Shown here in pieces: positions 5,301 to 45,207 of a stretch of DNA of 58,329 nt. Positions within the stretch are counted from its first letter, which is position 1, and every line of letters begins with the position of its first letter. A program made the position numbers and the translations under genes. The notes under the pieces are model-generated. The model did no database searches and was not told the DNA's origin. It saw nothing but the letters and a program-made list of their open reading frames with translations. The DNA is from a virus (Duplodnaviria > Caudoviricetes), in the IMG/VR virus record IMGVR_UViG_3300033997_000384, positions 1-58,329 of that record. One strand, given 5' to 3'.

Positions 5301-8300
5301 AGCTGGGCCAGGGTGCCGCCCTGGGTCAGGGTGTCATCCAGGATCAGGTAGTCGCCCGCCGCCACCTTGCCTGCGAAGGTCGGCTGGTTGGCGATTCGCT
5401 CCAGGGCGCTGGACTGGGTGCGGCCAACCTTCTCGGCCTGCACCGGCGCCGTATCGGTCTCCAGCCCGAGGCGCTGGGCGAGGACCTCGGCCGCCATCAG
5501 CGGGATTCGGTTCTTTCCTGCACCTTCGACGGCCAGCACCGGCACGATGCGGGGCTGGCTGCCGTCCGGAATCAACGCACGCACCTGCTCCACGAACTCC
5601 GGGGTCACGGCGTCGCGGGCCACGCGCAGCGCGGCGGCGTCGTCGCCGGCCTTAGCCGCCTCGTAGTCCGGGTGGTTGTTCAGGAAGCTGAGCGGGTGCG
5701 CCAGCACAGTATCCGGAAACTCCTTGGACCAGCCGCGGCGGGAGTACAGCACCGCCTGGTCGGCTCCCTGGTGGCCGTTCTGCCGGCGCAGCCAGGCACG
5801 CGACTGCTCGCCCAGGGCGAGGATGTCGGTATAGGTCCAGGGCACCTGGGGGAACAGCTGGCGCAGCAGCTCGCGAATCTTCGAGAGCACACGCTGCAGC
5901 ATGGTCGGGCGGTCGCCGTCCTCGAGGAGATGCGCGACCATCTCCTGCGCCACGAGCACGCGCTGCTGCTTGGCGTCGAGGCGCTCCAGCACAGAGGCAT
6001 AGGCGTCGCGAATCTGACCGATGCGCTGCCGGCCCTTGGCCGTGGCCTGCTGGCTGGAGTAGAGCCGCTCCATGACGGTATCTAGCTCCTCGCCGAGCAA
6101 ACCGCGAATGCCGCGGTGCCCCACCTCTTCATGCACCGCGGTGTAGATCGCATCGGCCAAGCTGCTGTGGTTGCCGGCGACGATGTAGGTTTTCCCAGAG
6201 CTGCGCACACCGCGCAGGTCCTGCGGGGCCACGCCATCACGCTTCGCGCGGGTGCGGGTCGATAGCGGCAGGTCCTCGAAGTCCTGCACCACCTCGACGC
6301 CGGCCAGCTCCGGCGAAGCCTTCAGCGCCTCGCGCAGCTGATCGGCCGACACCTGCACACCTTGCTCGGTGCCCTCCTGCTGTTCGCCGCCCTGGCGATA
6401 CAGCTGGACGCCGGCATCGGTCTCGCGGGTCTCGATGGCATCCACGAGCTTGTCGAAGGCCTGGTTGATTGCCTTGCGCTCTGCACCAGTCGGGAACGGG
6501 CGTTTCCAGCCCCAGGGTGTAGGGATGGCAGCCTGCTCGGGGCCGTAGTTCAGGAACGGGCTGCTGCCACCCTGCTCCGCAACCTTGTCCTCGACGTAGC
6601 CCTGGAAGGCGCGCGCCGCCATCTCGTGCGGCGTGGTCCAGTAGTCGGTACCGCGGCCCTGGTCCAGCTCCTTGGCGTCCATGGCAAATTGAGTCGGCAC
6701 GCGCCGGGTCTTCTGCTCGCCTTCCTGAGCCTCTGCCAGCATCTTCAGGCGAGACGAGTAGTGACCCATGACGCCGCGCAGGCGGTCCAGCTCGCCGTTG
6801 CTGTCGGCGCTGAAGCCACTGCGGCCACGCACGGCCTTGTAGATCGCACTGATCTGCTCCAGTGCGTCGTTGGTCCAGCGCATACCGCTGAAGGCATTAC
6901 GGCGCGACAGCTTCGCGTCCGGCTTCGTAGAGCGAAGCTCTGTCTCCAGCTGCACGCCGTCGAGGATCTGCTGGGCCACGGTATCGAACGCGGCCAGCTG
7001 TTCCGCAGTCGCCGGCTTGTTGTGGCGCTTCCAGTACTTCGGATCTTTCTGCTCGGCCAGGTCGGCGCGCAGGCGGTCCAGACGATCGGCTACCTCCTTG
7101 CGGGAACGGGCCACGAAATTGTCGGCACGGGCGGTGTCCTCCACGTACTGCTCGGCCTTGTGCTGCATGGTGTCCATCAGCTCCTGGTAGGCCAGGCGCA
7201 CCTCCGACCGAACACCGGAGCCGGTCCGCTTGAATCCCGAGCTGACCGCCTCGCGCTCGAAGTTTCCGGAGGTCTTGAGCGAGCGGGTACCGTCCTCGTC
7301 GATCACCCACTCGGCCGAGGCCTTCCCATCCTGACGACCGAAATAGTGGTCAAGGGCGTGGAACCACTCGTGCGCCAGGGAGCCGGCGCCGTTCATCTTG
7401 GTCAGGTTGATCGCCACCTTCCCCGGCTCATAGTGAGCGCGGGCGCCGCTCAGGCCGTGGCCACGAGCACCGAAGGCCAGGGCCAGCTCGCCGTTCAGGC
7501 TGATCGCCTTGGGCGGAATGTCCATTACCTCGGCCAGGTCGAGCAGGCCGTCGTAGGCGTCGTCGAGCAGTTGCTGCCGCTCTTCCTGGTTGTTCCAGTT
7601 GCCGAACTCGACCCCTCGGAAGCCGAAGGTCTCGATAAAGGCGCTGTCCTTGACCGGACCATCACGGCGCGCGGCGCCGATGCGCTGGGCATTCGCCGGC
7701 CGCGGTAGGTCCGCCTCGCCAAAGGTGGTGTTGGTCTCGATGATCTGCTGCGCGTTGAGGGCCATGTATTCCATAGCCGCCTCACGGCTCGGGAATACCT
7801 GGTCAACGACCTTCACGCGCTTGTAATCGCTGATGGTCCGCCAAATCTCGAAGCCATCACCATCGCCCTGACGCTGCGACACGACGCGATGCTTCAGAGC
7901 AACCGCGATCAGCGGGATGGCCTGCTCGGCCTCCTCGCGCGTGGCGTAGCTGCCGACCTTCTTGGGCTGCTTCTTCCAGTCCTTGAGCCGGCTATCGCGC
8001 ACTTCCCAGCGCCCGACATCGGCAGGGTTGGTGCTACTGATCACCTCGGAAATCTCGAACCGACGCGCCCACGCCGGTCGCGTGTCGCTTTCAGCTGTGC
8101 GACCAGTGCGGGGGCCGGTGGATACAGCACGATCCTTGCGCGCACCTCCGATCTTCTCGCCGAAGTCCTCGATCTTGGCCTTCGCCTCGCCACGGGTGCG
8201 CGGCGCGAACATATCGTTCTGCCCACGCGCCTCGGCCACGTCGGCTGGACGATCAGATCCGGTAAGGGTGAAGTCGGCGCGGTCGCGGTCTGCTTGCGCC

Positions 8301-33039: not shown

Positions 33040-33250
33040 GCTGTCTTTCCAGCTGTCCGCCAAAGAACCTTTCGGCGCCGACACCCAACTGCATCGGTCT
33101 CGCCTTCCGGCTCTCGCGCCCGGCCCGGAGTATCCGAGGTGCCGGCCTGCGCGGGCTGCCAGTGTTTTTGCTGAGCGCCCCACGGCGCGCTCGCGCACGC
33201 TTAGCTGGCTGGGAGCGTCCAGGCCTCCCCCGAAGGGCCGCCCTGGCTAC
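33040..33250 (-). ncRNA. Candidate structured non-coding RNA in the late leader
   Basis: No credible ORF, many helices, UUCG loop, ends GGACAGCTGGAAAGACAGC (module shared with 43084-43102). Confidence 0.5.
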
Positions 33251-33270
33251 GGGTACCAAAAACTGGACAT

Positions 33271-39144: not shown

Positions 39145-39552
39145 ATGGAACAAAGCTACGAATTTGTGATGGGGAACCTGGCCAAAGAAGCTGCTGATGC
39201 CATCGAGGCCGCTGGGACTGCACGAAATAGCCGAGAGCGGGATATGCAGGCAGTCACACTCGCAGTGGGCCGACTCAAGTTTGAGTGCCTCTGTCGTACA
39301 GTCCGAGCGCAGCACGCAACGCCTTGGAATCGCCTCGAAGGTATTGAGGCGGCTAGGTTTCGAGCGCTTCAAAGATTCAGCTGGACCCCGGACTACGTGC
39401 GCACGCTGAGTCGTGACGACCTGATGTTCGCCCTTCAAGACGAGCTCAGAGAGCTTCAACTGCCAGCAGAAGCCGTCCACGCAGCTACCAGCTGGGTCAA
39501 TACCTATGGCCTCGCTATTGAGTTCAAGGGGCATCTGGAGCGACCCGATTGA
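39145..39552 (+). CDS. Hypothetical protein antisense to the cro operon
   Basis: GGAGG RBS, 135 aa. Confidence 0.6.
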   Translation: MEQSYEFVMGNLAKEAADAIEAAGTARNSRERDMQAVTLAVGRLKFECLCRTVRAQHATPWNRLEGIEAARFRALQRFSWTPDYVRTLSRDDLMFALQDELRELQLPAEAVHAATSWVNTYGLAIEFKGHLERPD

Positions 39553-39772
39553 GAAAACGCCGCATTTCCTGGGCGCGGAGTGACATCGAAGCCGCCTGCC
39601 CCTCGTGCCAGGCGGCCATCTCCTCTGCACTCATGCCCTCAGGCCAAACCACAAATGGCGGCTGCTCACCTCGCAGGATGGCCTCGGCCTCCAGCACCTT
39701 CTTGGCATGTGCTGCCGGATCGGTACTGCGACCTGCCGCCTCCAGGGCAATCTCTTTTTCACGCGGCGTCAT
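39524..39772 (-). CDS. Hypothetical protein
   Basis: GAGGT RBS, 82 aa. Confidence 0.6.
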   Translation of the reverse strand: MTPREKEIALEAAGRSTDPAAHAKKVLEAEAILRGEQPPFVVWPEGMSAEEMAAWHEGQAASMSLRAQEMRRFLNRVAPDAP

Positions 39773-39823
39773 TTACTACCTCGGGGGTTTGGGATGGGGA
39801 ATGCAGCAGCACCAGGCGCGCGG

Positions 39824-40084
39824 TTAGCTCGCCTGGCGAATTGGGGGATGCTGTTCTTCGGTGCCAGCCAGCTCCGGCCAGATCGACTTCCAGTCGTCTG
39901 GGCGCAGCTCCTTGCGCGTGGCTGCGCCCATCTGTTCAAGGGCTACCGCTGTCTGCGGAGTGGCAACTTTGTTGCCATACGCAATCTGCCGGAGGTAGCC
40001 GCGGGTAGTACCTGCTCGGGCTACGCATTCGTCGCTAGCTGTTTTCAGCCACTCCAGCAGGCCTGTGAGCTTCTTCGTTTGCAT
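39824..40084 (-). CDS. cro: Cro-like HTH repressor
   Basis: AGTTRGYLRQIAYG..ELRPDDW..IWPEL; divergent from cI. Confidence 0.85.
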   Translation of the reverse strand: MQTKKLTGLLEWLKTASDECVARAGTTRGYLRQIAYGNKVATPQTAVALEQMGAATRKELRPDDWKSIWPELAGTEEQHPPIRQAS

Positions 40085-40113
40085 GTTGGGATCTCCTGCT
40101 ATCCGCAACATGA

Positions 40114-40167
40114 TTACCCACAGGTAAGCCATTTAGCAATACCCGCAGACCATTTACCCACAAGTAA
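40114..40167. promoter_or_regulatory. OR operators (TTACCCnnAGGTAW family)
   Basis: TTACCCACAGGTAA 40114-40127, TTACCCACAAGTAA 40154-40167, degenerate copy 40139-40152. Confidence 0.8.
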
Positions 40168-40187
40168 CGAATGGCGAATATTGACTA

Positions 40188-40886
40188 ATGGATAAGAACG
40201 AAATTCGCCGCCTCAACCTTCAAACCCTCATGGATCGGGAGTACGGCGTCGGCCAGCGCGGTGCAAAGGCGAAACTCGCCAAGCGCCTGGGCAAGCAGGC
40301 CGACTACATCTCCCGATGCCTCTACCCGCCAGGCAAGGACGGCCGAAAGAACATCGGCGAAGACTTTGCTCGGGAGATTGAGGCGTCGTTCAAGCTGGGC
40401 AGCTATGCGCTAGATTCGATCCTCCCCTCCGGCAATGAGCCCAGCAACATCGCGCCTGCCCTGCAGCCGTCCAGAGGAGCGCGCGAATACCCCCTGATCA
40501 GTTGGGTGGCTGCTGGCGATCGCGCATTGTCGGCTGACATCTTCGCTCCAGGCGTCGCAGAGGACTGGCTGCCGTCGACCGAGAATGCCGGTCCTCACGG
40601 CTACTGGCTGATTGTTCGGGGGCCTTCCATGACCTCCTCGACCCCCCCCAGCTTCCCTGATGGCACTCCGATCCTGGTTCAGCCAGAAGGGTTTGACTTG
40701 GTGAGCGGCAAGTTCTATATCGCCCGCCACCGAGATGGCGAAACCACGTTCAAGCAGTACATCTACGACAGCGGCCGCGAGTACCTGGTCCCGCTCAACA
40801 AGGAGTTCAAGCAGGTGGAAATGGACGACGAATGGGATGTGATTGGGCGGGTAGTCGACGTGAAAGCACCGCGGGGCGTGCTGTGA
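40188..40886 (+). CDS. cI: CI repressor, HTH plus S24 autopeptidase
   Basis: Ala-Gly site in SWVAAG, catalytic GPSM and TFK. Confidence 0.92.
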   Translation: MDKNEIRRLNLQTLMDREYGVGQRGAKAKLAKRLGKQADYISRCLYPPGKDGRKNIGEDFAREIEASFKLGSYALDSILPSGNEPSNIAPALQPSRGAREYPLISWVAAGDRALSADIFAPGVAEDWLPSTENAGPHGYWLIVRGPSMTSSTPPSFPDGTPILVQPEGFDLVSGKFYIARHRDGETTFKQYIYDSGREYLVPLNKEFKQVEMDDEWDVIGRVVDVKAPRGVL

Positions 40887-41104
40887 CACTTAACGCGACG
40901 ACCAAGGAGCGCCACGCGATCACTCTTGCCGTCGGCGTTGCACTAGGGGTGCTCCTGATGATTGTCTGGCAGGCAAAGGTCGAGCGGAAGACTTGGGAGG
41001 AGTGCGTGGTCGAGCAGATGGAGGACGCTCACACCAACAGCGCTGTACAGCTCCTCGCGCGGGTCTGCCAACGAAAGTATCCGAGCCCGAAAGCCCCGCA
41101 TTAG
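40883..41104 (+). CDS. Small membrane-anchored protein co-transcribed with cI
   Basis: GTG overlaps cI stop, one TM, two Cys. Confidence 0.55.
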   Translation: MTLNATTKERHAITLAVGVALGVLLMIVWQAKVERKTWEECVVEQMEDAHTNSAVQLLARVCQRKYPSPKAPH

Positions 41105-41183
41105 AGCCTCTGGGGCGCTATCGCCCCACGTAGCTCTCAGCCATTATCTGACTTGCGTCACATTCCTTTCCGAATGGATAATA

Positions 41184-41199
41184 CTGTCTATCCATACAG
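41184..41199. promoter_or_regulatory. LexA (SOS) box
   Basis: CTGTCTATCCATACAG (CTG-N10-CAG) just after a TTGCGT/GATAAT promoter. Confidence 0.8.
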
Positions 41200-41213
41200 C
41201 AAAGGAGCGCCGC

Positions 41214-41462
41214 ATGGCCAGAAAGGCAGTAGTACCGCGTCAACCGTCCAGCTTTGAGCTGCTGGCGCGCCGGGTACAGCAGATCATCTGCTCCCCCCGC
41301 GCCCAGGTTGAGCGGCAGGCCAACATCACAAGACTCGATGACGAATCCGAAGACGATTGGCGCACCCTCCTCGACCAGATCAGCGAGGAAGAGAACGTGC
41401 GAATGACCCTCCGGAGTGACGGCTCTGTGCACCTCGCCTGGCTTGGCCACCGGTCATACTGA
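41214..41462 (+). CDS. DUF1654-like protein
   Basis: SSFELLARRVQQII.SP.AQ..DESEDDW..DGSV...W; AAGGAG RBS. Confidence 0.75.
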   Translation: MARKAVVPRQPSSFELLARRVQQIICSPRAQVERQANITRLDDESEDDWRTLLDQISEEENVRMTLRSDGSVHLAWLGHRSY

Positions 41463-41479
41463 TTCACCGGATTCCCCCG

Positions 41480-41502
41480 AAGCCCGCAACTGCGGGCTTT
41501 TT
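41480..41502 (+). terminator. Intrinsic terminator
   Basis: AAGCCCGCA-AC-TGCGGGCTTTTT. Confidence 0.85.
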
Positions 41503-41522
41503 CATGCCCGCGCGAAATTTAT

Positions 41523-41565
41523 TTACCCGCAGGTATTGACCATAAAAGTTACCCCTAGGTATTGT
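41523..41565 (+). promoter_or_regulatory. pL promoter with two OL operators
   Basis: TTACCCGCAGGTAT 41523-41536 and TTACCCCTAGGTAT 41549-41562 overlapping TTGACC/TATTGT. Confidence 0.8.
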
Positions 41566-41895
41566 TTGCGCCATCGAACGGTTACCCGGTCGATGCGCTC
41601 TTTAACAACACCAGACCCCACAGCAGTCCCGACAGGCGCCGCGCAAGCGGCGTGCTGAGCGACGTGGTTAAACGACTGCTGATCGCTGGGTGAGCCCCAG
41701 CCCATGCCCGGCTCTGGTTACCGGCCAGCTCGACGCTTCGAGTCACGCGCTCCCTCTCCGAAAGCGCGCCACGGATCGCCAGCTGCTTCGCTCCCCCTTG
41801 GACTAGCAGGGCCTCAGACCGGCCGCTACTGCAGACCAGGGGGCGCGTTGAGAAGACATCGCCAAGCCCACCGTGGCGAGTAACGGAGGCCTGGA

Positions 41896-41936
41896 GCATC
41901 ACTGATGCCCGTTGGTGACAGCGGGCATTGGGATGT
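41896..41936 (+). repeat. 41-nt covarying GNRA hairpin, copy 1
   Basis: GCATCACTG-ATGCCCG-TTGGTGACAG-CGGGCAT-TGGGATGT. Confidence 0.75.
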
Positions 41937-41961
41937 ACCCACCCCCAATGAGGAAATGCCC

Positions 41962-42399
41962 ATGTTTGGAATCAAGAAAAAGCTGTTCGGCGCCAAGGTT
42001 GCCGCCAAGAAGATGGAAAACCGCGACCTGATGCAGGCTGTTGTCGGCGTCTGCCTGCTGGTCACCGCCGCGGACGGCTCGATCAGCAAGGCGGAAGCCC
42101 ACCAGACCGACAAGCAGCTGCGCGCCAACAAGAACCTCGAGCACTTCGGCTCCGAGATCACCGCCCAGATCAACCTCTACACCGAGCAGCTGGAGGCCTC
42201 CTTCCGCATCGGACGCATGAACATCCTGCGCGAGATCAAGGAAGTAGCGGCCAACCCGCTGGACGCCGAAGAGGTGTTCGTCAACGCCATCGCCGCGGCT
42301 GAGGCCGAGGGCGGCATCGACGACAAAGAGCTGCAGGTCCTGGTGGAGGTCGGCAACCTGCTTGGCCTGCGCCTGAAGGACTTCGGCATCGAGGCCTGA
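41962..42399 (+). CDS. terB: TerB family protein
   Basis: NRDLMQAVV..AADGSISKAE..AEGGIDDKE..LGL. Confidence 0.85.
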   Translation: MFGIKKKLFGAKVAAKKMENRDLMQAVVGVCLLVTAADGSISKAEAHQTDKQLRANKNLEHFGSEITAQINLYTEQLEASFRIGRMNILREIKEVAANPLDAEEVFVNAIAAAEAEGGIDDKELQVLVEVGNLLGLRLKDFGIEA

Positions 42400-42401
42400 T
42401 C

Positions 42402-42632
42402 GTGCTCGGCTTCACCCGGAAAAAGCCGGGTACAGGCCTGGGCATCGGACTGGCGGCTCTGTTGTTCGCCATCGCGGTGATCAAGGCCGTCGAGGTCGCC
42501 GTCAACTGGGGCGGCTGTGCCTACTACGGCTTCCAGACCGACCGCGACACCCGCTACGCCGCCTTCGTGGGCTGCATGGTGAAGGTGAACGACGACTGGA
42601 TACCCCGCAACGAGCTGCGAGTCTTGCAGTAG
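42402..42632 (+). CDS. Small membrane protein after terB
   Basis: One TM plus C-x-GCMV; GAGG RBS. Confidence 0.7.
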   Translation: MLGFTRKKPGTGLGIGLAALLFAIAVIKAVEVAVNWGGCAYYGFQTDRDTRYAAFVGCMVKVNDDWIPRNELRVLQ

Positions 42633-42633
42633 C

Positions 42634-42674
42634 GCATCACTGGAGCACCTTGGCGACAGGGTGCTCTGGGATGT
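42634..42674 (+). repeat. 41-nt covarying GNRA hairpin, copy 2
   Basis: GCATCACTG-GAGCACC-TTGGCGACAG-GGTGCTC-TGGGATGT. Confidence 0.75.
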
Positions 42675-42741
42675 AAACCCCTGCTATACCTACCTGCGCC
42701 GCGCAACGCGGCCAGGACTTCATTAGAAAAGGAGATTCACC

Positions 42742-42927
42742 ATGCTGATCCTCACACGCCGTATTTCCGAGACCCTGATCATTGGCGAAGGCGACGACGC
42801 CATCCGCGTCCAGATCCTGGGCGTGAAAGGCAACCAGGTCCGTGTCGGTGTCGATGCGCCCAAGCACATAGCTGTGCATCGCGAAGAGGTCTACGACCGC
42901 ATCCAGGCCGAGAAGAAATCGGCCTGA
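42742..42927 (+). CDS. csrA: Phage-encoded CsrA/RsmA RNA-binding regulator
   Basis: [33 protein letters not shown]. Confidence 0.95.
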
Positions 42928-42929
42928 TC

Positions 42930-43102
42930 GGAACCCCGCCTAGTCGGTTCGGGGTCGCCGCCCGGGCAGCTGGAGCCGCCCGGCCTGCAAGGGGTTGGCC
43001 ACCCCGGCGATTCGGCCGCTGAACATGGGGTAATAGCCTGCGAGGGCCGAATCAGCCCCATCAGCGCCACCAGCTCAAGCGTGGGACAGCCGGAGAGACG
43101 GC
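42930..43102 (+). ncRNA. Candidate pseudoknotted non-coding RNA
   Basis: Nested hairpins, two crossing pairings, terminal GGACAGCCGGAGAGACGGC module. Confidence 0.55.
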
Positions 43103-43268
43103 CCGATAGACCTGGCAAATCGTGCAGCTGCGGCGCCAGGCCGTATCGGAGAGCGGCCAGGCTGGCGGTGCGGCATGGGTGTCCAGCCGCTGGCCAGGCC
43201 GTTCTCCGATGCGTTCCCCGCATCGACTCCTTCATCAGCACTTGCCCCGCTCACACCGGGGCCTTTTT

Positions 43269-43344
43269 GCCGGCATAGCTCAGTTGGCAGAGCGCCTGAC
43301 TTGTAATCAGGAGGCCGCGGGTTCGATCCCTGCTGCCGGCACCA
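43269..43344 (+). tRNA. tRNA-Thr(UGU)
   Basis: 76-nt cloverleaf, GCCGGCA/TGCCGGC acceptor, CCTGA-CTTGTAA-TCAGG anticodon arm, GTTCGAT T-loop, encoded CCA. Confidence 0.95.
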
Positions 43345-43366
43345 CCCTACCCCTCAACGTAGGCCT

Positions 43367-43570
43367 ATCGGAAAGTGATCTGAGGCGTGGAAGCTGGACC
43401 AGGGCGCCCTGGCCCTGGAACACGCGGGAAGCGCGGAAACAAGCGCGCATGTGGGCGGCCCTGGCCGCTGAAGTTCCGGGCATCGGCACAATCACCGCGA
43501 ACGCGGCAATTACCCGAGAAGCGCACCGATGCCACAGCCAGAGTCGCGCCTGGCCAGATCACTCCCCGAT
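43367..43570 (+). ncRNA. Candidate multibranched RNA closed by a long stem
   Basis: ATCGGAAAGTGATCTG pairs with CAGATCACTCCCCGAT (14/16); internal helices. Confidence 0.4.
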
Positions 43571-43606
43571 GTGCCTCCCCGCGCATCACTTGCTTGCTAT
43601 GCCTTC

Positions 43607-43628
43607 GCCCCGGTTCGCCGGGGCTTTT
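43607..43628 (+). terminator. Intrinsic terminator
   Basis: GCCCCGG-TTCG-CCGGGGC-TTTT. Confidence 0.8.
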
Positions 43629-43731
43629 CCTTCCCCAGCCTTCATACGTCGCGTACTTGCTGCCCCACCTTGCGGAAGAGCTGGGGGCGGCAGGTGCGCG
43701 ACCTATGCACGCGCACCGCGAGGACATCGCC

Positions 43732-44040
43732 ATGAAGACCCTGCACGAAATCGAGCAGCTGGTACACGCCGCGCTCGACAACAAAGACCCGGAGACGCTG
43801 GAGCAGTACGCCGATCACGCCGCCGACAACATGGACCATGACCACCTGCGCGACCTCGCCCTGGCCATGATCGAGGGTGACGACGCCAGCAAGGCACTGG
43901 CCCTGGCCAAGATCGAGGGCCGCATCGACCGCCAGCGTGCCGAGTTCATGGAGCTGGAAGCCATGCGCCGGTCGCGGCTTGCAGATGAAGACAAGGCCTC
44001 CCGCGCCGAACTCGACGCATCGTTCCGAGGTGCTGCATGA
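43732..44040 (+). CDS. Hypothetical early protein
   Basis: GAGGA RBS, 102 aa, helical and acidic. Confidence 0.7.
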   Translation: MKTLHEIEQLVHAALDNKDPETLEQYADHAADNMDHDHLRDLALAMIEGDDASKALALAKIEGRIDRQRAEFMELEAMRRSRLADEDKASRAELDASFRGAA

Positions 44041-44153
44041 GCAACCTGAACGAGCTGTACGCCCGTATCCAGCGCCTGGCAGCCCTGGGTATCCACACCA
44101 ACCGCGAACTGCTGGCGCACCTGGAGCGCGCCAAGGAGGCGGCAGCATGCTGA
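44037..44153 (+). CDS. 38-aa early peptide
   Basis: ATGA-coupled, GC3-rich codons. Confidence 0.55.
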   Translation: MSNLNELYARIQRLAALGIHTNRELLAHLERAKEAAAC

Positions 44154-44254
44154 CCACCACCGACGTCGCGATCCTCTCCCTATTCCTCCTCGCCCTGTCG
44201 TTGCTCGACGGCGACCCGACTCCTGCAGCCGCATTCGCGGGGTGCAGGCCATGA
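44147..44254 (+). CDS. 35-aa hydrophobic early peptide
   Basis: AAGGAGG RBS, VAILSLFLLALSLL. Confidence 0.5.
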   Translation: MLTTTDVAILSLFLLALSLLDGDPTPAAAFAGCRP

Positions 44255-44394
44255 CCCGCGCCCAGCACCGCCGTCGCTGCATCTGGATCGGTTCCGCCCT
44301 TGGTGGATTGATCTGGCTGGCAGCCCTGATCGTTCCGGCGGCCATCGCCGGGCACATCACCGCCGAGCAGCCGGCCATCACGATCGATAGGTAA
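44251..44394 (+). CDS. 47-aa membrane peptide
   Basis: ATGA-coupled, MTRAQHRRR then a TM segment. Confidence 0.55.
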   Translation: MTRAQHRRRCIWIGSALGGLIWLAALIVPAAIAGHITAEQPAITIDR

Positions 44395-44397
44395 CCG

Positions 44398-45207
44398 ATG
44401 AACACGATCACTACGGTGCGGGCCTCCTCGTGGGGCTCGCTGTTCGACTGCGCCTATCGCTGGGAAGGCGTGCACCTGCTGGGTATCAAGTCGCCGAGCA
44501 GCCCGCGCGCTCTACTGGGAACAGCCATCCACGCCGGTACCGCCGTTTTCGACTCGGCGCGCATCGCCGGCCAGGACGTGTCGCCGGATGACGCAGCCGA
44601 CGTGCTGGTCCAGACCCTGCGGCATCCCGACTTCGACGTCGACTGGCGCGGCGCCGACATCAGCCTGCGCGAGGCCGAGGCCACCGGCCTGGCCCTGCAC
44701 ATCCGCTACTGCACCGAGATCAGCCCCCGCTATCAGTTCGTGGCGGTGGAGATGGAGACGGCGCCGCTGGAGATCAACTGCGGCGGCGGCCAGATAGTGC
44801 GCCTGACCGGCACACTCGACCGGGCGCGCATTCGGCGCTACGGCGAAGGCGTCGGCATCGCCGACGTGAAGACCGGTACCGCAGCTGTCACCACCGAGGG
44901 CGTCGCCAAGACCAAGGGCCACAAGCCGCAGATTGGCACCTACGAGCTGCTCTACGAGCACACCACCGGTCAGCGCTGCACGGCGCCGGCCGAGATCATC
45001 GGGCTGAAGACCAAGGGCAAGGCCGAGGCCGCCACCGGCGAAATTATCGGTGCCCGCGAGCTGATGGTCGGCAGCGAGGACTTCCCCGGCCTGATCCAGT
45101 TTGCCGCGGACATGTTCCGCAGCGGCCACTTCCCCCCGAACGCGCAGAGCACGCTCTGCAGCGCCAGGTACTGCCCACGTTGGGCGACCTGCCCCTATCA
45201 CGACTGA
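44398..45207 (+). CDS. PD-(D/E)XK RecB/Cas4-like exonuclease
   Basis: GTAIH, GTLD..ADVKT, QIGTY, terminal C..YC..W..C plus N-terminal Cys. Confidence 0.85.
   Translation: MNTITTVRASSWGSLFDCAYRWEGVHLLGIKSPSSPRALLGTAIHAGTAVFDSARIAGQDVSPDDAADVLVQTLRHPDFDVDWRGADISLREAEATGLALHIRYCTEISPRYQFVAVEMETAPLEINCGGGQIVRLTGTLDRARIRRYGEGVGIADVKTGTAAVTTEGVAKTKGHKPQIGTYELLYEHTTGQRCTAPAEIIGLKTKGKAEAATGEIIGARELMVGSEDFPGLIQFAADMFRSGHFPPNAQSTLCSARYCPRWATCPYHD

Follow-up and report, generated by a model that had tools for sequence, protein, structure and literature searches.

An apparently undescribed family of modular phage RNAs and its probable member downstream of csrA in a lambdoid Pseudomonas phage

The subject of this study is the untranslated stretch at positions 42928-43731, downstream of a csrA-like gene, in a DNA sequence of 58,329 bp that is a complete IMG/VR virus record (IMGVR_UViG_3300033997_000384; Duplodnaviria, Caudoviricetes) and is referred to here as the window. 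An earlier, sequence-only reading had taken 42930-43102 to be one compact RNA with a possible double pseudoknot, ribozyme-, decoy- or antitoxin-like and of no family it recognised. It is instead very probable that the stretch holds a module (unit A) of a family of phage RNAs built from three hairpins, P1, P2 and P3, and not a double pseudoknot. The interval drawn earlier therefore runs from an unrelated spacer into unit A, of which it takes in the first 36 nt, and would consist of three simple hairpins, a 58-nt segment with two alternative hairpins, and P0 and P1, the start of the unit. A structured RNA of an uncatalogued family is indeed present, but it is not the object that was drawn, as the unit runs on for 130 nt past the 3' limit given. 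The best explanation overall, to which a probability of roughly 0.6 can be given, is that 42928-43731 represents a series of separable RNA modules within the early-left operon of a lambdoid Pseudomonas phage, including what may be a processing and stability cassette.

Unit A is complete in the window (Table 1). Its conserved core of about 150 nt (43083-43232) comprises P1, the linker CCGAnnACC, P2 and P3, and the unit folds as P1-P2-P3 with a z-score of -3.99. The P1 stem, 43089-92 paired with 43099-102, ends in the GGC of GGCCCGA; linker and P2 occupy 43103-43140, with P2 abutting P3; and P3 has a base of the form ..ATCGGAGAG / CTCYCCGAT.. followed by a complementary, variable distal part, six of whose seven pairs form in the anchored test described below. 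Directly 5' of P1 is the conserved sequence P0. The same 21-22 nt stand beside a P1-type hairpin at loci L149, L183, L289, L290, L291/L302, L295, L296, L298 and L304, with variation limited to the central 2-3 nt, and no stable fold is predicted for them. At the other end, the small hairpin P4 overlaps the 3' strand of P3 and is therefore an alternative to the P3 base. It has equivalents in a second unit downstream, unit B (GATGTGC/GCGCATC), and in L149, L200 and L296 (GATGC/GCATC). The linker sequence CCGAT (43103-43107) recurs as the 3' strand of the P3 base (43207-43212), and the 3' half of P4, GCATCG (43220-43225), recurs as its 5' strand (43145-43149), so that the P3 base could swap partners on both sides. 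An alternative fold, with the linker paired to the P3 5' strand and P4 formed, appears in one centroid structure, and together with the reading of the sequence this hints at a switch.

The family was delimited with the pattern GGCCCGA-N2-3-ACC-N8-38-ATCGGARA, covering the linker, P2 and the start of P3, which matches at least 118 viral stretches. In 79 parsed matches the 3' strand of P3 pairs at 14 or more of 18 positions, and 51 non-redundant members were left after the removal of eight loci that were false matches in coding sequence. L149 keeps the element order of the window with neither csrA nor a tRNA: CCACCAGCT-nnn-AGCGTGGGAC (P0), GCCG-GAGAGA-CGGC (P1), CCGAnnACC, P2, P3, P4 (GATGC/GCATC) and a terminator. 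Its P3 opens with G[T/C]ATCGGAGAG and 7-8 variable nt, the exact complement follows 112 nt on, and CTCCCCGATGC comes next. A P. aeruginosa copy matches 34 INPHARED records, all of them Pseudomonas phages (including Haboob, Shamal, Itty13, TC7, JBD88b, YMC11/02/R656, Ab31, MD8, phi1 and phi2), and in none is it annotated as RNA. A metagenome scan for P0 returned 17 stretches, of which about five are real (L295, L296, L298, L302 and L304); the others fall inside coding sequence. In Haboob, MD8 and Ab31 the layout is cro and cI, accessory genes, the element and then the early-left genes, with the element on the strand of the latter; throughout the family the unit is oriented as the genes around it. 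Units that are near-identical have different genes beside them. No neighbouring protein is shared across the family, the commonest protein family occurring at 16 of 50 loci under crude calling of open reading frames (ORFs) in which the element itself, read spuriously as coding, made up the top cluster. In phage Haboob (L287) alone, a gene annotated as RNA-directed DNA polymerase (6081-7190) lies 1.85 kb downstream of the unit.

In the sequences compared, P1, P2 and P3 all show compensatory changes. P1 exists with at least six different stem sequences, relatives carrying GCCCG/CGGGC, GCCGG/CCGGC, GCCAG/CTGGC, GCTGG/CCGGC or GCCTGC/GCAGGC. For P2, a hairpin with both ends anchored is formed by all 23 distinct sequences, and TA/CG or GC/CG exchanges occur at positions 3-6. 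For P3, the strands were placed by the conserved proximal motifs only and seven distal positions were then scored; at least six of the seven pairs form in 39 of 58 non-redundant pattern matches, against 2.6% in random 7-mer controls, and among 30 distinct stems listed at least 10 complementary ones come from true members. An alignment of 52 distinct rows (A5) has 90.6% of its cells paired, compared to 82.4% in shuffles and 29-39% with slid 3' partners. Changes on both sides are found in 21 of its 33 pairs, G-U pairs occur on the sense strand, and none of 500 shuffles reaches any of five measures. Matches obtained outside the pattern selection keep the architecture and alter motifs that the pattern held invariant (Ab31, the second unit of L296, the genome match L310 and L037), for example, L296 has ATCGG-CAAC/GTTG-ACCGAT, and in Ab31 the P3 base is Watson-Crick throughout; the motif CCGAnnACC also recurs in such matches (L037, the second unit of L296, L310 and L312). 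A covariance model (R2) built from L197, L224, L267 and L279 only, without the window or its close relatives, has a single match below E 0.1 in the 58-kb window, at 43083-43222 (36.0 bits, E 9e-8, this E-value being rough after a short calibration).

The complementarities on which the double pseudoknot was drawn all exist. They are a perfect 9-bp stem of GATTCGGCC with GGCCGAATC; GCTG (43018-21) and ATGGGG (43025-30), complementary to CCCCAT (43056-61) and CAGC (43062-65); and AGCTGG (42968-73), the loop of CCGGGC/GCCCGG (42962-67/42978-83), complementary to CCAGCT (43070-75). The two further hairpins, ACCCCG/CGGGGT (42933-38/42950-55) and GGGGT/ACCCC (42991-95/43001-05), are likewise in place, as is the terminal module of GGACA (43084-88), GCCG (43089-92), GAGAGA (43093-98) and CGGC (43099-102). 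The hairpin of this module is P1, backed by conservation in other phages, and it is the only listed element with independent support. The stretch is 71% G+C, and its pairing is within the range of shuffled sequences: 42928-43102 folds with z = -0.49 in RNAfold, with 61 of 200 shuffles folding at least as well; a perfect stem of 9 bp or more arises in 118 of 1000 dinucleotide shuffles (11.8%); helices of at least 6 bp number 9 where shuffles have 5.9 +/- 2.3 (P = 0.14), and the count of crossing helix pairs is 7 compared with 4.0 +/- 4.2 (P = 0.21). The two central helices also compete. The best structure with the 9-bp stem has -25.7 kcal/mol and that with the GCTG..ATGGGG/CCCCAT..CAGC hairpin -26.1 kcal/mol, with ensemble shares of about 16% and 84%, so that by prediction they are near-isoenergetic nested alternatives; from the supposed pseudoknot strands RNAfold picks the hairpin, not the 9-bp stem. 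A knot holding both helices would have connectors of 0 and 2 nt, which by reasoning, uncomputed, excludes a classical coaxial H-type.

Comparison with relatives led the same way. Among 80 viral loci with a related CsrA, the spacer is common only to L037, where the CsrA protein is 67% identical and both spacer ends and the tRNA-Thr are 96-97% identical as DNA. About 43012-43134 is missing there, with some 11 nt in its place, and this part comprises the partner of the 9-bp stem, both crossing helices and the terminal module; that the flanks are kept at this level without it, and that shuffles are not exceeded, argues against one compact fold. The hairpin segment 42933-43005 is 97% identical in L037, with both substitutions in loops, so no compensatory change is available. 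The segment 43009-43066 (z = -1.63), absent in L037, is near-identical in L111/L148. Over 716 nt that include 42930-43102, the window is 97% identical to a prophage of Aquipseudomonas alcaligenes NBRC 14159. At this place the prophage copy (L111) is 99% identical, its spacer differs at two positions, and the only substitution within the claimed pairings, G43018A, turns a G-C pair into A.C. Since L037 and the A. alcaligenes copy are the only relatives available, the crossing pairings have no compensatory change in their favour and two observations against them. The AGCTGG loop, for its part, stands upstream of the CCACCAGCT module in only two of the first six contexts examined (the window and L149). 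No further relative of the central segment was found in the viral contigs, the one-genome-per-species set or 401 Pseudomonadaceae genomes, and on these sequences it is limited to this phage and one near-identical prophage. Exact 17-nt patterns for the central segment and the long hairpin gave 0 and 11 matches in viral contigs, of which only the L037 contig is real, and a 19-mer from hairpin B gave 55 genome matches, one of them real (L111). In BLAST against the 401 genomes the spacer is matched fully by G001 only and partially by G077 (locus L149), where just 43055-43112, the P0-P1 part, is covered. Short matches in 18 other Pseudomonadaceae genomes look like chance and were set aside.

The earlier remark that no family was recognised held up in Rfam 15, none of whose families matches 42930-43102. 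Within 42600-43400, ribozyme families gave no match up to E 10, and the best other match that falls inside 42930-43102 was the DUF3085 RNA (20.2 bits, cut-off 40.6, E 0.57). Near the gathering cut-off only tRNA and Proteo-phage-1 pass in the window, the latter elsewhere. This Proteo-phage-1 RNA lies at 33154-33252 on the minus strand (56.9 bits, cut-off 42), on the other early or the late side of the phage, and it also occurs in L169, another P1-P2-P3 locus (75.7 bits). Altogether, a compact, double-pseudoknotted ribozyme, decoy or antitoxin at 42930-43102 is a very improbable reading, for all that its complementarities exist and the segment is nearly unchanged in one prophage; the double pseudoknot is most likely an artefact of reading a 71% G+C spacer by eye.

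In unit A, P3 is a plain hairpin, while in relatives it encloses a cargo of about 30 to 173 nt. The cargo of L190 (1296-1393) scores 44.4 bits on the tRNA model (RF00005; cut-off 29). Its acceptor, D and T arms are canonical, with the acceptor stem running on into P3; the anticodon arm is enlarged by a 37-nt insert and contains a CAU triplet, and CCA is not encoded. Equivalent cargos are carried by L185, L191, L202, L206, L226, L234, L251, L258, L264, L276 and L284, so that this shape is kept across many P. aeruginosa prophages. Other cargos place their first hairpin 2 nt after the stem and their last directly before the returning strand, which reads as a cloverleaf-like layout. The resemblance to tRNA is one of acceptor, D and T arms; the insert, the missing CCA and the empty P3 of unit A set the family apart. 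In the bacterial Y-RNA-like tRNA mimic YrlA, the tRNA-like part joins its scaffold via the anticodon arm, whereas here the cargo joins through its acceptor stem. Downstream of the unit, the window and L261 also have true tRNAs.

In the window the tRNA-Thr adjoins unit A and its terminator, and for unit B it occupies the place that P0, P1 and the linker have in unit A. The P3 of unit B encloses a branched cargo of about 172 nt between the arms of a 22-nt inverted repeat (I3), 82% complementary, with the exact anchors TATCGGAAAG and CTCCCCGATG; its distal stem GTGATCTG/CAGATCAC is identical to that of L149 and L296. Neither of the covariance models, R1 and R2, detects unit B. At both terminator sites a GC-rich hairpin is followed by a run of T. 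Tandem units are found in L170 and L296 as well as in the window. In L170, a 1.4-kb non-coding array (300-1700) between a divergent promoter region and the gene for the terminase small subunit holds at least two full units, a tRNA-shaped insert in one P3, and further tRNA-like pieces; ARAGORN called no tRNA on this cargo or on the pieces. Upstream of P0 in L291/L302 and L298, a cargo-type sequence, GAATGCGCAGGCTGATGCGC ... GCCGGAGATCAGC.CCGGCC, stands outside any P1-P3 scaffold with a short closing stem of its own, followed by P0-P1 and the start of an ORF, which suggests that cargo modules move on their own.

The structural genes of the window are on the minus strand. Behind the gene for a cI-like repressor (40188-40886), the plus strand carries, in order, genes for a TerB-like protein and a small product of unassigned function, csrA, and about 800 nt with no credible ORF, 3' of which come the genes for an exonuclease and RecT and others of the early set. 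The ORFs that overlap the spacer match nothing in Pfam, and their G+C at third codon positions (GC3) is not coding-like, so that they fail the GC3 filter. A 14-bp palindrome, TTACCCACAGGTAA, occurs in three copies, two of them upstream of the cI-like gene (40114-40127 and 40154-40167) and one 1.4 kb downstream (41523-41536), where it adjoins the sole promoter-like site within 39500-44500. The three copies look like right and left operators, and 41523-41565 is probably, from its sequence, the early-left promoter of an operon to which both csrA and the RNA units belong; with this operator-like palindrome and sole promoter-like site, csrA and the spacer are therefore placed in the equivalent of a lambdoid early-left operon. 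The roughly 1 kb between cI and the terB-like gene (40886-41905) has no plus-strand ORF with coding-like GC3; the putative left operator and promoter lie here, as does a leader of about 330 nt. On the same strand a 42-nt motif is repeated at 41896-41937, before the terB-like gene, and at 42634-42675, before csrA. It consists of GCATCACTG, a stem, TTGGYGACA, the returning stem and GGGATGTA, and the stems of the two copies differ by compensatory changes (GATGCCCG/CGGGCATT vs GGAGCACC/GGTGCTCT). Outside the window, the exact pattern turned up in the A. alcaligenes relative alone, with a variant in L037.

Table 1. Features of the csrA-proximal stretch and its putative promoter region, in window positions
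Feature	Position	Strand	Basis and remarks
Operator-like TTACCCGCAGGTAT with promoter-like site	41523..41565	+	Palindrome in its third copy, the other two being upstream of the cI-like gene
csrA-like gene, 61 aa	42742..42927	+	ORF; PHROG 9500 CsrA-like regulator, E 1.4e-28; upstream neighbour of the spacer
Three local hairpins, ACCCCG/CGGGGT, CCGGGC/GCCCGG, GGGGT/ACCCC	42933..43005	+	Helix listing; spacer after csrA
Segment with two mutually exclusive hairpins	43009..43066	+	9-bp stem 43009-17/43045-53, or 43017-22 + 43025-30/43056-66
P0, conserved sequence CCACCAGCT-nnn-AGCGTGGGAC	43067..43087	+	Directly 5' of P1
P1, hairpin GCCG-GAGAGA-CGGC	43089..43102	+	Minimum free energy and centroid structures; terminal module of the earlier reading
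Linker CCGATAGA	43103..43110	+	With the next CC gives the motif CCGAnnACC
P2, hairpin CCTGGC...GCCAGG	43111..43140	+	Predicted fold; abuts P3
P3, long stem of 17 + 10 + 4 pairs	43142..43213	+	Base CGTATCGGAGAG / TTCTCCGATGCG; no cargo, plain hairpin
P4, small hairpin CGATGC-GTTCCCC-GCATCG	43207..43225	+	Read from the sequence; seen in one centroid
Intrinsic terminator GCCCCG-CTCACAC-CGGGGC + CTTTTT	43244..43268	+	Hairpin 43244-62; abuts the tRNA
tRNA-Thr, anticodon TGT	43269..43344	+	ARAGORN; Rfam RF00005, 73.8 bits
Unit B	43346..43590	+	P2-like hairpin CCTAC/GTAGG 43346-63; P3 arms 43361-82 and 43555-76; P4 43568-87
Second intrinsic terminator	43607..43634	+	After unit B; hairpin 43607-24, then TTTTCCTT

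These modules, with their conservation, compensatory changes, strand and operon position, are observed; the processing and stability mechanism proposed for them is drawn by analogy and is tentative, with odds somewhat below even. According to it, the unit would be transcribed as part of the early operon, and P3, as a leader-trailer duplex of 20-30 bp, would be a processing site for a double-strand-specific nuclease of the RNase III type. Where the cargo is tRNA-like, RNase P would act next. Processing would free the cargo and cut the polycistronic RNA, and P1 and P2 would stay on the upstream message, here that of csrA, as a protective 3' end. RNase III acts on the leader-trailer duplexes around rRNAs, on the intercistronic sites of the T7 early RNA, and on the N-leader and sib of lambda. 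These share with the unit a long, near-perfect duplex that flanks a stable RNA or stands alone between cistrons, in the phage cases within a polycistronic early transcript. Unlike the unit, which is known here from its sequence, they lack two conserved upstream hairpins and a linker. Contigs of RNA libraries from four studies run through the L190 element, and the parts of L190 without such cover are those with different flanks.

Several points weigh against this explanation, some of them concerning the family evidence and others the mechanism. Of the 58 P3 rows, 19 form fewer than six of seven pairs (eight of these loci are false matches and the rest have a wrong 3' anchor or a 1-nt bulge). 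Alignment A5 was fitted to the model and some of its long-cargo rows are mis-registered, and the pattern search forced three invariant motifs, whose conservation was partly tested through the matches obtained without the pattern. The family is also rare per species, as model R1, under strict filters, finds it in 2 of 151 Pseudomonadaceae genomes. The RNA-library contigs show no ends and could hold DNA, and so are no proof of transcription; neither cleavage sites nor RNA ends nor a dependence on nucleases came to light. P1, the linker and P2 are conserved in sequence far beyond the needs of a 3' protective hairpin, which processing leaves unexplained; the P3 of unit A has no cargo to release; and inverted P3 arms could in principle be a feature of the DNA.

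An unlikely alternative, though the one that fares best, is that the unit and its terminator form a stable small RNA acting in trans, derived from a 3' untranslated region (UTR) or cut from the operon RNA; its targets in immunity, exclusion or counter-defence would be specified by the variable cargo or by a single-stranded tail, one example being a tRNA-shaped decoy. It would fit the way units A and B and that of L149 end in a U-tail terminator preceded by an unpaired stretch, and also the hypervariable cargo on a constant scaffold, tRNA-shaped in many copies, and the tandem arrangement in L170, L296 and the window. There is, against this, no promoter-like site in front of the units and no shared partner protein (at most 16 of 50 loci), and complementarity of the cargo to the 200 nt downstream reached p <= 0.05 in 3 of 26 cases with about 1.3 expected, targets elsewhere not having been sought. 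The C4 antisense RNA of P1/P7 and the CI RNA of P4 are phage RNAs cut from the transcript of an immunity-region operon, and they resemble the unit in an end-to-end stem and tRNA-like recognition; they differ in that the unit has no Rfam match at permissive thresholds and lacks, as just described, an enrichment of downstream complementarity.

Somewhat less likely again is a cis-acting RNA antiterminator that would carry transcription through the terminator hairpins at 43244-62 and 43607-24, and past the untranslated RNA genes, into the exonuclease and recT genes. The put RNA of HK022 is a cis-acting antiterminator, and the unit presumably resembles it: both are hairpins in the early operon of a seemingly N-less lambdoid phage, ahead of terminators. 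The unit differs from put in being found on one operon side, far from the promoter, and in having a third long stem with a cargo. Each unit lies just upstream of an intrinsic terminator in both the window and L149, no other promoter-like site was found for the exonuclease and RecT genes downstream, and the strong conservation of P1, linker and P2 at the sequence level would be in keeping with contact to a host machine. A related P. aeruginosa phage is reported to be without an N homologue, in a passage of PMC7326022. The distribution speaks against antitermination, as copies are seen only on the early-left side and not in the other early operon, and lie 0.75-1.5 kb from the promoter-like region, behind genes. 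The P. aeruginosa copies have no following terminator, an ORF starting 25-35 nt after P3, and the variable cargo would have no role.

Two other explanations are about as improbable as the double pseudoknot. The spacer could bind the phage CsrA in the manner of RsmY/RsmZ, either as a sponge or as an autoregulatory 3' UTR; RsmY, RsmZ and CsrB are non-coding RNAs genetically linked to a CsrA-family protein. The spacer does follow csrA directly, has one GGA in a 10-nt hairpin loop (42972), and carries GGAGAGA in P1. GGA is at the level of shuffles, both in 42930-43102 (4 vs 3.86 +/- 1.45, with no ANGGA) and in the whole spacer (5 vs 5.68 +/- 1.75), which also tells against the decoy idea of the earlier reading; no RNA of the RsmY, RsmZ or CsrB type matches in Rfam, and the conserved unit occurs in many other phages behind unrelated genes, unlinked to csrA. 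Conservation at the DNA level, as a module-exchange boundary in mosaic phages or as protein-bound inverted repeats, would fit flanking genes that differ around near-identical units and an L037 csrA at 67% beside a spacer at 97%, but a single-stranded fold is indicated by short hairpins with loops of 4-10 nt, by the base-pair exchanges that P1 and P2 show and by sense-strand G-U pairs, and the unit is always oriented as the surrounding genes.

Phage-borne csrA in Pseudomonas, and the neighbourhood of csrA and tRNA genes on chromosomes, are already in print in passages of PMC7366521. A description of the RNA unit was not found in the full-text literature (subscription journals and supplements being outside the scope of the search), and the unit is absent from Rfam 15; it apparently belongs to an undescribed phage RNA family. 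Members have a fixed early-operon place in many temperate phages of P. aeruginosa, including the studied phages Ab31, MD8 and JBD88b, and an association with tRNAs and tRNA-shaped inserts recurs among them. Should the cassette explanation be right, the family would offer a handle on the organisation and processing of early RNA in apparently N-less lambdoid phages, on the delivery of small RNAs and tRNA mimics by phages, and on the near-identical short sequences that mark module boundaries in mosaic phage genomes. It could further be speculated, at decidedly long odds, that temperate phages of Pseudomonas carry in the early-left operon a modular RNA cassette in which the long stem of a constant scaffold holds an interchangeable, fast-evolving cargo, in many cases tRNA-shaped with its anticodon arm remodelled, that could be released to act in trans. 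The cargo might then provide decoys or substitutes against host defences that target tRNAs, or immunity determinants, and the window would hold an empty and a loaded cassette flanking a true tRNA-Thr.

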